Part shown: piece after piece, positions 13,944 through 22,775 of the stretch
Layout: every line of letters begins with the position of its first letter
Numbering within the stretch: position 1 is the first letter of the stretch
Origin: Candidatus Heimdallarchaeota archaeon
GTDB lineage: Archaea > Asgardarchaeota > Heimdallarchaeia > Heimdallarchaeales > Heimdallarchaeaceae
Direction of reading: 5' to 3'
Assembly (NCBI GenBank): GCA_030603365.1
Contig: JAUVXV010000004.1
Location: 261,569 to 293,568, forward strand
Length of the DNA: 32,000 bases
The notes under the pieces: model-generated
Seen by the model: only the letters and a program-made list of their open reading frames with translations
The model's database searches: none
What the model was told of the DNA's origin: nothing
Position numbers and translations under genes: made by a program

Positions 13944-14960
13944 ATGTCATGGATTGAAATACTATTAATGATAACTGTCCCTGGTATACTTTTCATTGTT
14001 ATCATGGCCTTATTTATAGACTGGCTTGATAGAAAGATATATGCTAGAGGACAAAGTAGAAAAGGTCCACCATTTCTGCAACCTCTTTACGATATAGTAA
14101 AACTTACAGCTAAGGAAACAATAATTCCAGCAGGTGTAAGTAAGTTTTGGATGACTGCTTTACCAATATTATTCTTTGCTACCGCGGTAACAGGGGCTTT
14201 AATGATCCCAATAGCTGTTTTTAGTGACCAAACTGGTTTTGTATCTGGATTTACAAGTTTTCCATTCGATATATTCTTTATTCTTTTTGTACTACTATCT
14301 TATGGGTTATTGATATATTTCATGGGAATAGTAACAAAGAATCCATTCGCACAAACTGGTTCCACAAGATCATTATTGCAAGTATTAAGTTTTGAAATAC
14401 CTTTAGGATTCAGCTTGCTTGTTCCTATATTGATTGTAGGAGTAGGGCAAGATACTGATTTTTCATTAAGTACGATTGGTGCAAAATTATTTACTGAATC
14501 AGGTATCGGTAGAAACTTAGTATTAATTATCGCTCTTGTTGTTGCATTTGCTATTTCGATTATAGTCATGATGGCAGAACTCGAAGAGTACCCATTTGAC
14601 TCCCCAACAGCTCATACAGAACTTGCCGATGGATGGTTAGTAGAATATGGTGGCTGGAGATATGCTCTCATTATTCTTGGCGAAAGAATAGGTGCATTCT
14701 TCATTGGAGGCTTAATTGTGACACTATTTCTAGGTGGTCCTTACGTAGGAATAGTGGTTGAAAATCCCTTTTTGATGGGTTTGATAAACTTGATATTCTT
14801 TACTTTGAAACTGATAGCTGTTATAGCTTTGATGTCTTTCTTAAGAACAATAATATCACGTATTAGAATCGATCAATCAGTGAGGTTAGCTTGGAAAATC
14901 ATTCTCCCCATAACTATTGGAGCAGTGATGCTAACAGTAGGATTATTAATAGGAGTTTGA
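13944..14960 (+). CDS. NuoH/ND1-like membrane subunit (MbhM/HycD/EchB equivalent) of the hydrogenase complex
   Basis: This polytopic membrane protein has the NuoH-type N-terminus ([14 protein letters not shown]) and loops rich in conserved charged residues. GGAGG sits 10 nt upstream of ATG 13944; the ORF track start at 13926 is TTG. Confidence 0.85.
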
Positions 14961-14965
14961 AGTAA

Positions 14966-15364
14966 ATGGAATGGTGGAAAGCACTAATAATTGATATTGC
15001 CGCAAGTGTTATTCTTGCGGTAGTCGTATGGTTGATTAGTAAACGAGTCCGTTACATTCTCGGTACACAACCTCCCAAACAAAGCGCTATGAAGAAGGAT
15101 CTGTTTGCAAGCGGAGAAGGATCTATTCTGGCTAAACCCAGAAAGATTTTCATTGATACATACGTCTTCATTGCATTCTTTGTGCTCTTCGATATTGCAG
15201 TGTTTATACTTATGACATTATTCTTTGTTACCAGTGGTACAAATAATGTCTTAGAAGCTGCACTAGTATATCTTTCACTTTTGCTTCTAACTGTGTTAGT
15301 TGCTCTAAGGAAGAAATATCCAAGGGATGCTGTTGATCCTATTGTACAAGGAGGTACTGAATGA
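14966..15364 (+). CDS. NuoA/ND3-like membrane subunit
   Basis: It has three predicted TM helices. The loop reads FASGEGS where the canonical sequence is YECG. TM2 reads [12 protein letters not shown], against the canonical FLLFD-V/I-E. Size and operon position fit NuoA. The assignment rests on a by-eye comparison only. Confidence 0.6.
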
Positions 15365-15864
15365 TGAGTTTAGTAATAATATACGTATTTATGATTTTAG
15401 CAATACTAGCGGCTGTATTTGCAATTGAGTGCAGAAGATTGATGTTTTCAGTCATTGGTTTAATAGCAATGAACGCTTTCATCTGGATACTTTTGCTGCT
15501 TTACAATGCAACACTGCTAGCGTGGATACAATTGATTGTTTATGGTGGTGGATTTACAGCACTATTTGTTGTTGTTGTAGCCTTAACAGAAAAACAAAGA
15601 GATGAGTTATTTGATTGGAAGAGATCAGTAATTGCACTAGTTATAATCGCTATAATTGTGGGATTTGCAATTTGGGCAGTTATTAGTTCCTCAGGCTATT
15701 TGCCATTTGGAACTTTTGAAATAATTGAATCTATCGAATTGTTGTGGAGTGAAAGAGTTATGGATCTTATACTCCAAGCAATTGTTTTCTTTGCTACTTC
15801 TATAGCAATTGGAACTTTGTTTATCAGCCATAAGAAGAAAGTCAAAAAGGAGGCCGAAGCATAA
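15361..15864 (+). CDS. NuoJ/ND6-like membrane subunit
   Basis: The motif [21 protein letters not shown] resembles the NuoJ signature (Q-x-x-VY-x-G-x-x-x-V-L-F-x-F-V). Its start overlaps the nuoA-like stop (ATGA), which indicates translational coupling. Confidence 0.7.
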
Positions 15865-16178
15865 TGTTAGAACAACTACATTTTATGATTCTTGGTATAG
15901 TCCTATTTTGTGTAGGATTATATGCATTGCTGAGTAAAAGAAATGTTATCAAGATTCTTATGGGAATCGAAATAATGACAATAGCTATCAACATTGTCTT
16001 TGTTTCATTAGGTAAGAACATTGCTAACGAGACATTTCTAGAATTTGCTCAGATCTTCCCATTGATTTCTATAGCAATAGGTGCAGCTGTTATGGCAGTA
16101 GGTTTAGCAATAGTCATTAACAACTATCGTCATGCAAAAAGCGTGGATAGCGATGAAATGGCTACATTGAAAAGGTGA
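15864..16178 (+). CDS. NuoK/ND4L-like (MnhC-like) membrane subunit
   Basis: It is 104 aa with three TM helices and carries the NuoK-type core LSKRNVIKILMGIEIMTIAINIVFV with a membrane-embedded Glu. It overlaps the upstream gene by TAATG. Confidence 0.85.
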   Translation: MLEQLHFMILGIVLFCVGLYALLSKRNVIKILMGIEIMTIAINIVFVSLGKNIANETFLEFAQIFPLISIAIGAAVMAVGLAIVINNYRHAKSVDSDEMATLKR

Positions 16179-20992: not shown

Positions 20993-20998
20993 TTCACC

Positions 20999-22252
20999 TC
21001 AGAAAAATGGCCGATTATACTTCTTAGCTTTGATAGCTTTACGAGCAAATTCGTCCTGATTTAGTATCATTTTTTCACCAGTATTTTCGTTAATTAACAT
21101 AACCCTATTTGTACAAGAGAAACAAGGGTCATAGCTTCGTAGAATAACTGGCATATCAGCAATATATTCTCCATCCATTCTCTTTAAAGTCGCATCAATG
21201 TTTCCTAACGATGGTGCTCTTATTTTATATCTATCTGGCTTATCAGTACCATTTGCAATTGCATAATGGACATCTTCTCCTCTTGGAGCTTCTGCTCTAG
21301 CCATATATGTTCCTTCTGGAATTCTTTGTTTAACTCTTACAAGTAGCTCTCCTTGTGTAGATTCTAGTTGATCTAAAATCTGTTTGCACATTTGCAATGA
21401 TTCTAGTGTTTCATCAACTCTTACAAGTGTAGTTGCTAATACATCCCCTTCAGGATAACAAACTAAATTCCAGTCTATTTTATCATATAGCTCATAGGGA
21501 GTTGATTTTCGAACATCGAAAGGTAATCCAGAAGCTCTTGCTGTTGGGCCATTAGGTGTTGTTTTCTTGGCTTCATCCTTTGTTAATACACCAACATCTT
21601 TCAAACGATTTGTAATTGAAGCTTCTTCAACGAATACTTTTCTATGATATTGTACTTTCTTTATTAATTCATCAAGAAGAGGTCTAGCCCAGTCAGCTTT
21701 CTCTTTAGGAATATCTCTTTTTACTCCACCTGGAAGCATTAAAGCAGGATTAACTCTGTTGCCACTCAATTTCTCTACAATATCCATTATTATCTCACGA
21801 TCTCTCCATGAGATGTGCAGCAATGTATCGAATCCAGCATCATGTGCAAGAATTCCATACCAAAGAATATGGGAATGAATACGTTCTGCTTCACAACTGA
21901 ACATACGAATCAACCTTGCTCTTTCAGAAATCTGATCTTCAACACCAGCTAACCTATCCACAACACGCACATACACGTTTTGATGAACAGCACTGCAAAT
22001 TCCACAAGCTCTGGGTATTAACATGGTGTTTTGTCTCCATGTTCTGTTTTCCATAGCTTTTTCAATACCTCTCAAATTGAACCCAATTCGTATATCAGCT
22101 TCAACTACCCTTTCACCTTTAAGATGAATGATAAAGTGTGCTGGTTCTTCACACCAAGGGTGTTGGGGTCCTATAAAGATATGATGATCAGCATCTTCAG
22201 GGCCATCACTACCATCTGTTAGTGTTCTAAATCTTGATCTGTATTCAGTCAT
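20999..22252 (-). CDS. group-4 [NiFe]-hydrogenase large (catalytic) subunit, NuoD-like
   Basis: The N-terminal Ni-Fe ligand motif is R-A-C-G-I-C-S-A-V-H. The C-terminal motif is D-P-C-F-S-C-T-N-R, followed by a ~32-aa extension of the kind removed by the maturation endopeptidase. GPQHP and RGIEK core motifs are present. A GGAGGAG ribosome-binding site lies inside the end of the upstream gene. Confidence 0.92.
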   Translation of the reverse strand: MTEYRSRFRTLTDGSDGPEDADHHIFIGPQHPWCEEPAHFIIHLKGERVVEADIRIGFNLRGIEKAMENRTWRQNTMLIPRACGICSAVHQNVYVRVVDRLAGVEDQISERARLIRMFSCEAERIHSHILWYGILAHDAGFDTLLHISWRDREIIMDIVEKLSGNRVNPALMLPGGVKRDIPKEKADWARPLLDELIKKVQYHRKVFVEEASITNRLKDVGVLTKDEAKKTTPNGPTARASGLPFDVRKSTPYELYDKIDWNLVCYPEGDVLATTLVRVDETLESLQMCKQILDQLESTQGELLVRVKQRIPEGTYMARAEAPRGEDVHYAIANGTDKPDRYKIRAPSLGNIDATLKRMDGEYIADMPVILRSYDPCFSCTNRVMLINENTGEKMILNQDEFARKAIKAKKYNRPFF

Positions 22253-22253
22253 T

Positions 22254-22775
22254 TTATTTCTCCTCCAAACTCTCTTTGGCTATTTTCATGGTTATCTCTT
22301 TAATTTGTTCCCATGAATATTCTTTGCGCATTGGTTTGACATCATCTGGCCATTTTTCAGGTAGAATTATTCTCTGAAGGAATGGATGATTCTCGAAGTA
22401 AACTCCATAGAAATCATAGATCTCTCTTTCATAGTAGTCAGCTGCAACAAAAAAGTCCACCATACTTGGAGACTTTGGATTTTTCTTATCAACTTTTGTA
22501 ATAATGAAGTTTATTGGAACTTCTCTAAACTCCTCCTCTATTCTATGTTGAATATGGTAACAAATGTTGAATCCGTCTTCCTTTTCAAAACCACTTACGG
22601 TTGAAAGGTGATAAATACCGGCCTCTTCATGAAGAATTTTCATAAGGTTATAGGCATTTTTTGTGTTAACCAAGAGGTCAAAATGACCCTCTTCAACCTT
22701 AACTGTTTCTTCAACAAGATTTTCTGGTAAAGTTACGTTTAAAATACTTTCTAGTTCTTTGAGTTCATCACTCAT
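22254..22775 (-). CDS. NuoC-like (30-kDa) subunit of the hydrogenase complex
   Basis: The C-terminal signature ADYYEREIYDFYGVYFENHP matches NuoC, HycE N-terminal domain and MbhK. It is the first gene of the C-D-I-B operon. Confidence 0.85.
   Translation of the reverse strand: MSDELKELESILNVTLPENLVEETVKVEEGHFDLLVNTKNAYNLMKILHEEAGIYHLSTVSGFEKEDGFNICYHIQHRIEEEFREVPINFIITKVDKKNPKSPSMVDFFVAADYYEREIYDFYGVYFENHPFLQRIILPEKWPDDVKPMRKEYSWEQIKEITMKIAKESLEEK

Follow-up and report, generated by a model that had tools for sequence, protein, structure and literature searches.

A complex-I-like group 4 [NiFe] hydrogenase predicted from two convergent operons of a Heimdallarchaeaceae archaeon

When genes for a [NiFe] hydrogenase module converge on genes for a membrane arm like that of respiratory complex I, is the catalytic module a genuine hydrogenase, do the two gene sets make one enzyme, and what would that enzyme do? 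The question is raised by a 32,000-nt stretch of DNA from Candidatus Heimdallarchaeota archaeon (contig JAUVXV010000004.1, positions 261,569 to 293,568), which we refer to as the window; all coordinates are positions in the window, and its G+C content is ~34%. We consider it likely that the products of two convergent operons form a single group 4 [NiFe] hydrogenase, a membrane-bound, energy-converting enzyme of complex-I-like build that would be driven by ferredoxin, pump ions and evolve H2 in a reversible reaction. The gene content, ligand motifs, homologies, synteny and predicted folds of the locus are described below, and it is from these that we infer the union of the two operons' products in one complex. 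Such an enzyme is not new as a class, and the window adds another well-linked case from a lineage that has already been named in print.

The hydrogenase locus is compact and spans ~10.3–29 kb of the window. The genes on the plus strand are hypE and hypF, then a tight, partly overlapping run of six membrane-protein genes in the order H-A-J-K-L-N, and then a gene for a 122-aa (amino acid) membrane protein. On the minus strand, the peripheral-arm genes converge on these membrane genes and code for a NuoC-like protein, the large subunit, a 2x[4Fe-4S] protein and the small subunit. Located 5' of nuoC on the same strand are, in transcription order, hypD, hypC and a 227-aa open reading frame (ORF).

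The catalytic module

The peripheral arm is encoded by four minus-strand genes, given here in the order of transcription:

22254-22775, minus strand: NuoC-like subunit, 173 aa (PF00329, 93 bits)
20999-22252, minus strand: [NiFe] large subunit, 417 aa, with a 34-aa C-terminal extension (PF00374 and PF00346)
20519-20992, minus strand: NuoI/HycF-like 2x[4Fe-4S] subunit, 157 aa (two CxxCxxCxxxCP motifs in the translation; Fer4 families)
20040-20522, minus strand: NuoB/MbhJ-like small subunit with one [4Fe-4S] site, 160 aa (PF01058, 106 bits)

The large subunit contains the motifs RACGICSAVH and DPCFSCTNR, which align residue for residue by phmmer with the Ni-Fe ligand motifs of Pyrococcus furiosus MbhL (RMCGICSFSH and DPCLSCTDR) and Escherichia coli HycE (RVCGICGFAH and DPCYSCTDR). 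The columns of these motifs are invariant in an alignment of the large subunit with its relatives, and the invariant Glu36 and the Arg of APRGE are also kept. In searches of PDB sequences the closest match is MbhL (6cfw_L; E 1e-73, 251 bits, 40% identity), followed by HycE (7z0s_E; E 6e-60, 206 bits), with NuoD at ~170–180 bits. The 34 residues beyond the last Arg align with the C-terminal tail that HycI removes from HycE. The catalytic subunit proposed in a first-pass annotation of this DNA, which was made from the letters and their translations and assigned both cysteine pairs and a C-terminal extension to 20999-22252, is therefore upheld by alignment to MbhL and HycE, and the Ni-Fe cysteines are not misassigned.

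The positions that would be expected to contact quinone are occupied differently. Nqo4 His38 and Tyr87, the quinone-binding residues of complex I NuoD, correspond in the large subunit to Glu35, within an HP..EEP motif that is common to MbhL, and to a Gly lying between the two N-terminal Ni-ligating cysteines. The small subunit contains GGCNGCDIE, with the CxxC spacing of MbhJ and HycG, and then GNCC and GCPP; NuoB, in contrast, has GLACCAIE with a tandem CC. Its four cluster cysteines align with those of MbhJ, which is also its best PDB match (177 bits, with HycG and NuoB at ~110). The earlier description of these as NuoB-type cluster cysteines is refined by this hydrogenase-type arrangement. 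The NuoI-like subunit is matched by the NCBIfam models for HycF, NdhI and NuoI, all of them below their cut-offs.

Five maturation genes lie on either side of the structural genes:

10332-11360, plus strand: hypE (AIRS and AIRS_C domains)
11373-13739, plus strand: hypF (full HypF domain set), lying with hypE directly upstream of nuoH
23653-23940, minus strand: hypC (PF01455)
23928-25031, minus strand: hypD (PF01924)
28413-28964, minus strand: HycI-family maturation endopeptidase, 183 aa (PF01750, 42.8 bits, cut-off 23)

Pfam matches bear out the observation that hypC, hypD, hypE, hypF and an endopeptidase flank the locus, and in most relatives too the HycI gene adjoins the hydrogenase genes. 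It had also been noted that hypA and hypB are missing from the window; in agreement with this, no HypA or HypB domain is found in any window ORF of at least 100 aa, and the intergenic gaps are too short to hold one.

The locus combines the Ni-Fe motifs of group 4 enzymes with a NuoB-like small subunit, NuoI-, NuoC- and NuoH-like partners, and maturation by Hyp proteins and HycI. The quinone His and Tyr of NuoD and the tandem-CC N2 site of NuoB, which mark respiratory complex I, are absent from the homologues encoded here. At the level of sequence, the ligands, the C-terminal extension, HycI and the missing quinone residues support the first-pass view that this is a true [NiFe] hydrogenase, not a Nuo/Fpo/Mbx/Ehr derivative. 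An Ehr/Mbx/Fpo/Nuo-type derivative with degenerate ligands is ruled out by the alignment, in which both cysteine pairs are present.

A survey of relatives extends this picture. One genome per GTDB species was scanned with the large-subunit alignment, and the ORFs of 80 species-representative loci and nine others were tagged (loci are numbered L001 and so on where they have to be told apart). Across these loci the subunit set is found together with a Cys-complete large subunit, both cysteine pairs being present in 93 of 94 large subunits with a median C-terminal extension of 39 residues.

The membrane arm

The six overlapping plus-strand genes encode the following proteins, in which TM denotes a transmembrane helix and HL the lateral helix:

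13926-14960, plus strand: NuoH/MbhM-like membrane anchor, 344 aa (PF00146, 224 bits; conserved NuoH segment present); the ORF may start at TTG 13926, with ATG 13944 as the alternative
14966-15364, plus strand: NuoA-like 3-TM subunit, 132 aa (PF00507, 25.6 bits, cut-off 23.3; four NCBIfam NuoA models)
15361-15864, plus strand: NuoJ-like subunit, unsplit, 167 aa (PF00499, 42.6 bits, cut-off 33.2)
15864-16178, plus strand: NuoK-like subunit, 104 aa (PF00420, 80 bits; NCBIfam NuoK NF004320, 68.9, cut-off 57)
16175-18028, plus strand: NuoL-type antiporter-like subunit with HL and TM16, 617 aa (TIGR01974, 426 bits, cut-off 407.5; PF00662)
18028-19506, plus strand: second antiporter-like subunit in the NuoN position, MbhH/MrpD-like, 492 aa (PF00361, 193 bits)

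The assignments of NuoA and NuoJ had been singled out as the points at which a complex-I-type interpretation might fail, and both proteins score above their Pfam cut-offs. Searching PDB with the single NuoA-like sequence gave only noise, a chance match to ArnT, and its identity was therefore tested with a profile of 7 orthologues. This profile matches E. coli NuoA with E 3.8e-4. Of its 23 PDB matches, 17 are NuoA/ND3/NdhC/Nqo7 chains, the best 8 among them, and none is an Mbh or Mbs chain. Both the [FY]xxGE loop and the TM2 LFD motif are conserved in the protein, and its orthologue lies directly upstream of nuoB in the sister clades, as in canonical nuo operons. The NuoJ-like subunit contains the TM3 motif IQLIVYGGG and matches MbsD, ND6, NuoJ and MbhD in PDB.

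NuoH and NuoK, whose identification by eye the Pfam scores corroborate, show different affinities. The NuoH-like subunit is closest to MbhM (104 bits), with NuoH at 92 and HycD at 39, and its loop Glu residues are conserved as in complex I. The NuoK-like subunit keeps the TM2 Glu, and the TM3 Glu is replaced by Gly. That second Glu is missing in all 16 archaeal relatives, whereas both are kept in 51 bacterial relatives; three Chloroflexota loci have Gln or Asp.

The larger of the two antiporter-like subunits had been described as NuoL-type, with the C-terminal segment that precedes the lateral helix, and this is substantiated at the levels of both sequence and predicted fold. It aligns with E. 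coli NuoL over residues 12–584 (E 1.5e-72), including the segment GFYIDHLYSMVFVKP, and keeps the TM5 Glu, TM7 Lys, TM8 His/Lys and TM12 Lys. An AlphaFold2 (AF2) model (pLDDT, the predicted local distance difference test score, of 82) has amphipathic helices at 546–587, followed by a last TM helix at 594–616 in the position of TM16. A Foldseek search with this model returns NuoL/ND5/NdhF chains as all of the top 25 matches (TM-scores 0.77–0.81), and MrpA appears at rank 26. The tail falls ~20 residues short of that of E. coli NuoL, and archaeal relatives with three antiporter-like subunits have tails that are longer by 30–90 residues. A regex survey of tail length over the 80 loci gives 49–57 residues in archaeal relatives with two antiporter-like subunits and 82–142 in those with three, the comparison being limited to archaea because the bacterial data are noisy. 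HL length has been reported to scale with the number of antiporter-like subunits (PMC8165549), and the length seen here fits that rule and thus supports an arrangement with two of them. The NuoL-type subunit also has a 7-residue insertion, SGDTVDI, at residues ~249–258, in the loop of the broken TM7 helix, relative to E. coli NuoL and to its homologues in L005 (Bathyarchaeota) and L006 (Elusimicrobiota). The insertion is common to the aligned Heimdall and Promethearchaeota relatives (L001, L003 and L007), and residues 251–258 are the lowest-confidence part of the AF2 model (pLDDT <50).

The one further antiporter-like subunit that had been recognized is likewise present, and among solved structures it is closest to MbhH (156 bits), followed by MbsH (141), NuoN (134) and NuoM (124). 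It keeps the TM5 Glu, TM8 Lys and TM12 Lys. In its TM7 region, FSVTAAMLFLNAWLPDAH, Thr takes the place of the TM7 Lys and Asn that of the nearby His of NuoN, NuoM and MbhH. All of the Heimdall-type two-antiporter loci (L001, L003, L007, L009, L012 and L020) have Thr or Val for this Lys together with Asn for the His, whereas the M/N-like subunits of bacterial relatives and of most archaeal ones nearly always keep both Lys and His. Thr for the TM7 Lys recurs in one subunit each of the Bathyarchaeia loci L079 and L085.

Six of the seven membrane-arm subunits of complex I are therefore represented, namely A, H, J, K, L with its HL, and one M/N-like protein, with one antiporter-like subunit fewer. 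No Mrp E/F/G/B-type gene and no MbhI is found in or next to the operons, each membrane ORF being H, A, J, K, L, N or the 122-aa protein. The complex-I-type NuoL, NuoA, NuoJ and NuoK and the lack of Mrp genes support a complex-I-type arm, not an Ech, Hyf or Mbh/Mrp layout; the first-pass annotation had likewise set the arm apart from the Ech and Mbh/Mrp layouts. A standard MBH (membrane-bound hydrogenase)/Mrp or Hyf enzyme is ruled out by the missing Mrp module, by a NuoL score above the TIGR01974 cut-off, and by a NuoA profile that finds no Mbh or Mbs chain.

The large subunit, the small subunit, NuoH and the second antiporter-like subunit are each closest to Pyrococcus MBH among solved structures. 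Judged by these affinities the enzyme is mixed rather than a 'complex I with a Ni site', with NuoL, NuoK, NuoA and the unsplit NuoJ being of complex I type and those four MBH-like. The summary of the locus as a NuoABCDHIJKLN core with a [NiFe] site consequently stands as to the subunit set, the lack of NuoEFG and the single missing antiporter-like subunit, and needs to be amended as to the affinities of the parts.

The seventh plus-strand gene of this run encodes a further small membrane protein:

19618-19986, plus strand: four-helix membrane protein, 122 aa, of uncertain complex membership (weak DUF5453 match; its orthologue is precomputed as DUF8058)

This gene lies between both operons in the window and in L009, L012 and L014, but neither L001 nor L090 has it. 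Its product may be an additional membrane subunit or may be unrelated.

Operon linkage and distribution

The closest homologues of the large subunit are 74–89% identical and are named Heimdallarchaeaceae; the next tier is at ≤50%. The same convergent layout is present in the closed genome of Ca. Heimdallarchaeum endolithica (CP084167.1, locus L090), which reads hypE-hypF-HAJKLN, then HycI, and then the B, I, D and C genes on the opposite strand. It also occurs in the metagenomic contigs L001 and L009, and partially in L012. In five others (L002, L008, L011, L014 and L016) the hypD-hypC-227aa-CDIB operon stands apart from the membrane-arm operon on a scale of 10 kb. Both operons are found on one contig in further relatives, for example on contigs of 42,546, 17,843, 157,925, 139,933 and 82,915 bp. 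Other Heimdall and Promethearchaeota lineages have a single operon in the order A-B-C-D-H-I-J-K-L-N, with two antiporter-like genes.

The architecture is not specific to Asgard archaea. An operon of the form Ant(~480)-Ant(~615)-Ant(~475)-J-K-A-B-C-D-H-I-HycI, where Ant is an antiporter-like subunit, is widespread (loci L005, L006 and L019–L089). It is found in contigs labelled Bacillota, Planctomycetales/Planctomycetaceae, Omnitrophota, Elusimicrobia, Verrucomicrobiota, Myxococcales/Polyangiaceae, NC10, Spirochaetes/Spirochaetota, Fibrobacterota and Chloroflexi/Anaerolinea (the last with two Ant), and also in Bathyarchaeia, Thaumarchaeota, Baldrarchaeum and Borrarchaeum. A rough neighbour-joining tree of the large subunits places the window clade beside the other Heimdall clade and MbhL beside a clade of Bathyarchaeia plus bacteria, with HycE outside. 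One Actinomycetota locus (L039) has a second B-C-D-H-I set right after its hydrogenase operon, in which the NuoD homologue (11354-12481 of that locus, plus strand) is without both cysteine pairs and is, by its sequence, Ehr- or Nuo-like.

Proposed function and alternatives

The working cycle that these components suggest, with its catalytic direction, electron donor, pumped ion and stoichiometry, would be as follows. A low-potential carrier would dock on the NuoI-like subunit; by analogy with MBH and photosynthetic NDH-1 this would be ferredoxin, or possibly the flavodoxin encoded in synteny with the locus. Electrons would travel through the two [4Fe-4S] clusters of the NuoI-like subunit and then the one cluster of the MbhJ-like small subunit before reaching the [NiFe] site, which would sit where complex I binds quinone and would reduce protons to H2, reversibly in principle. 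The redox energy would be passed through an 'E-channel' of NuoH, NuoA, NuoJ and NuoK to the two antiporter-like subunits, which would export H+ (or Na+). The MbhH/NuoN-like subunit would be proximal and the NuoL-type subunit distal, the arm being clamped by the ~40-residue lateral helix and its TM16 anchor. HypCDEF would build the Fe(CN)2CO centre, and HycI would cut off the 34-residue C-terminal tail after nickel insertion.

Several observations weigh against this account. The proximal antiporter-like subunit is without the TM7 Lys and His and NuoK is without its second Glu, so that the pumping stoichiometry may be below that of 'two channels'. Among close relatives with sufficient flanking sequence, roughly half do not have the two operons side by side, so that the argument for a single complex depends on co-occurrence and on homology to the single-operon relatives. 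Group 4 enzymes such as Ech and Eha/Ehb are reversible, and neither the direction of catalysis nor the pumped ion can be read from sequence. We also considered that the Heimdallarchaeaceae enzyme might be a distinct functional sub-variant, in which only the NuoL-type subunit is a fully equipped proton channel, or the proximal subunit uses some other ion or gating chemistry, with the 227-aa protein as an extra peripheral-arm subunit or an assembly or nickel-delivery factor and flavodoxin as the partner. This is conceivable but we think it unlikely.

Reversibility leaves room for the same complex to work physiologically in H2 uptake, with membrane potential driving the reduction of ferredoxin or flavodoxin by H2 and so supplying anabolism, as proposed for Eha/Ehb and reverse Ech. 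The two flavodoxin genes of the window, and the flavodoxin gene that adjoins hypD in six relatives, would suit such a role. The closest characterized catalytic module is nonetheless that of the H2-evolving MBH, and no CO2-fixation or methanogenesis genes are linked within the window. Both published analyses of the Asgard class (10.1101/2024.07.04.601786; PMC11291895) propose ferredoxin oxidation with H2 production. We accordingly regard uptake as distinctly unlikely, and favour a ferredoxin-driven, H2-evolving enzyme.

Two further proposals would divide or redirect that enzyme, and both appear to us very unlikely. The operons might encode separate machines, a NuoCDIB hydrogenase with some other anchor and a NuoHAJKLN arm serving another peripheral module or working as an Mrp-like antiporter. 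They do lie on opposite strands, and within 10 kb they are unlinked in L002, L008, L011, L014 and L016. But the CDIB operon contains no membrane anchor of its own, and we know of no role for NuoH and NuoA in the absence of a NuoB/D module. Both modules moreover lie side by side in the window, in L001, L009 and L012 and in the closed genome L090, and share a contig in further relatives; every more distant relative has all of the subunits in one operon; and hypE and hypF stand immediately upstream of nuoH. Least probable of all is that a membrane quinone or other lipophilic acceptor is reduced instead of, or as well as, protons, which would make the enzyme a hydrogen: or ferredoxin:quinone oxidoreductase on the way to complex I. 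Complex-I-type NuoA, NuoH and NuoJ, which line the quinone tunnel in complex I, are all encoded here, and some Heimdallarchaeia are described as having quinone-dependent respiratory parts (10.1101/2024.07.04.601786). Against this, the positions of Nqo4 His38 and Tyr87 are taken by Glu and by a Gly between Ni-ligating cysteines, the small subunit has the hydrogenase-type CxxC and not the N2-type CC, and Appler et al. report in the same preprint a modelled cavity that is closed to quinone.

An orphan protein and other neighbouring genes

Between hypC and nuoC lies one further gene:

22892-23575, minus strand: 227-aa orphan protein, without a Pfam family

The ORF occupies the same position in L001, L002 and L008–L016, and of the close relatives sampled Ca. 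H. endolithica (L090) is the only exception. Its family counts 58 members, and wherever a source is named it is Heimdallarchaeaceae or Heimdallarchaeota; only 4 representatives are found among 1.84 billion proteins. C44 and C95 are invariant. No Pfam match is obtained even at E ≤1 across 26 members, and PDB yields neither a sequence relative nor a fold match for the model (best E 1.2). The AF2 model is confidently predicted (pLDDT 89; predicted template modelling score, pTM, 0.88), and by eye the helices at 54–64 and 69–80 with the strands at 83–88 and 91–96 of this model look like a winged helix. A known maturation factor or regulator is unsupported by any Pfam, PDB-sequence or PDB-fold match, and we regard the protein as a candidate accessory or assembly factor.

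Other genes of the window lie around the hydrogenase genes:

178-4819, minus strand: bacterial-type DNA gyrase genes gyrB and gyrA
6961-7617, plus strand: OB-fold protein with weak RPA_C and Stn1 matches
8583-9095, plus strand: flavodoxin (Flavodoxin_3/5)
9476-9560, plus strand: tRNA-Ser(GCT)
25239-25793, plus strand: flavodoxin (Flavodoxin_3/5)
25944-26450, plus strand: PEMT/ICMT-like membrane methyltransferase
26474-27253, minus strand: 259-aa unannotated protein with several Cys (CYCAW, FCNC)

The two flavodoxin genes flank the locus, and one of them adjoins hypD in the window as it does in six relatives (L001, L009, L011, L013, L015 and L016). In L090 its place is taken by a flavodiiron-like protein with Lactamase_B and flavodoxin domains. 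Flavodoxin is a possible redox partner of the hydrogenase. The methyltransferase gene adjoins hypD in L008, L014 and L016. The gene for the Cys-containing 259-aa protein is near the hyp genes in L009, L011–L014 and L016; because the ORFs of the relatives are ~330 aa long, its start may be miscalled. We offer the orphan, the flavodoxins, the methyltransferase and the 259-aa protein as leads. The gyrA genes of L008 and L090 contain an intein, and that of the window has none.

Comparison with known systems

E. coli formate hydrogenlyase (Hyc/Hyf, group 4a; PDB 7Z0S) and Ech (group 4e) have in common with the window enzyme a group 4 [NiFe] module and a HycI-processed extension. In formate hydrogenlyase NuoC is fused to the large subunit, whereas it is a separate gene in the window; HycD is a weak match to the membrane anchor (39 bits), there is no formate dehydrogenase partner, and no molybdopterin or FdhF domain is found in the window. 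NuoA, NuoJ and the HL of a NuoL-type subunit set the window enzyme apart from Hyc/Hyf and Ech, and the six-subunit Ech layout is not present.

The MBH of P. furiosus (group 4d; PDB 6CFW) is the closest solved relative of four subunits and presumably has the same chemistry, from ferredoxin to H2. It has a single antiporter-like subunit, a split NuoJ (MbhD and MbhE), MbhI, and an Mrp-type Na+ module of MbhA–C and MbhF (MbhA, B, C and F being equivalent to MrpE, F, G and B), none of which is in the window. In their place the window encodes NuoA, an unsplit NuoJ and an HL-bearing NuoL-type subunit.

With complex I and the 11-subunit NDH-1, the window enzyme has in common A, B, C, D, H, I, J, K, L and one M/N-like subunit, together with the HL and TM16 of NuoL, the charged residues of NuoL and the TM2 Glu of NuoK. 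It differs in having a [NiFe] site for the quinone site, one antiporter-like subunit fewer, no NuoEFG, and neither the TM3 Glu of NuoK nor the proximal TM7 Lys.

The widespread bacterial and archaeal operon is likewise similar in both cysteine pairs, the C-terminal extension, the complex-I-type A, J, K and H subunits and HycI, and its large subunits are 42–48% identical to that of the window. In most cases it has three antiporter-like subunits, forms a single operon and retains both NuoK Glu residues, and its M/N-like subunits almost always keep the TM7 Lys. In metagenomic papers enzymes of this kind tend to be labelled 'Mbh-Mrp type' or 'group 4g', although NuoA, J and K mark the membrane arm of the widespread operon as complex-I-type. 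By our own mapping the operon probably corresponds to the 'group 4g, Mrp-linked' enzymes of those papers.

The closest known systems are the Asgard complex I-like group 4 hydrogenases (subgroups 4j, 4m, 4p and 4q) of Appler et al. 2024 (bioRxiv 10.1101/2024.07.04.601786), a preprint that names Heimdallarchaeaceae. It describes a NuoBCDI arm without NuoEFG, an HL helix, two antiporter-like subunits, ferredoxin as the predicted donor and NuoD as an active hydrogenase, and from AF2-multimer work on the same class it arrives at the same mechanism, with a cavity that quinone cannot enter. Valentin-Alvarado et al. 2024 (PMC11291895) report a complex of Freyarchaeia and Atabeyarchaeia that is phylogenetically related to that of Heimdallarchaeia and is transcribed in situ. 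The window enzyme has the NuoBCDI arm with an intact [NiFe] site, the lack of NuoEFG, the shorter membrane arm, the L-like subunit with HL and the two antiporter-like subunits that these descriptions give for the class. Its large subunit groups in the tree with those of other Heimdall clades, its HL is modelled, it has two PF00361 genes, and no NuoE, NuoF or NuoG domain is found in the window. Nothing in it is different in kind.

The novelty implied by the first-pass annotation does not hold, since the same architecture and evolutionary argument appear in both sources (10.1101/2024.07.04.601786 and PMC11291895), and its interpretation is an independent rediscovery of a published result. No mention was found, in the accessible parts of the published descriptions, of the split convergent layout with hyp genes, the 227-aa orphan or the proximal TM7 Lys-to-Thr change, the last two being unreported as far as we could find in these sources. 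The locus adds no new concept; it is a clean and fully linked example, with its maturation genes and a few peculiarities of sequence.

The class itself, found in the archaeal lineage that is closest to eukaryotes, survives as an intermediate linking H2-evolving membrane hydrogenases to respiratory complex I, and it bears on how complex I gained its long proton-pumping arm before its quinone chemistry. It also touches the question of whether H2 was produced or consumed by the archaeal host in eukaryogenesis. This importance has been argued in print before, on the basis of AlphaFold-multimer models and phylogeny. In the window enzyme the proximal half looks MBH-like and the distal half complex-I-like, which is the gradient expected of such an intermediate.

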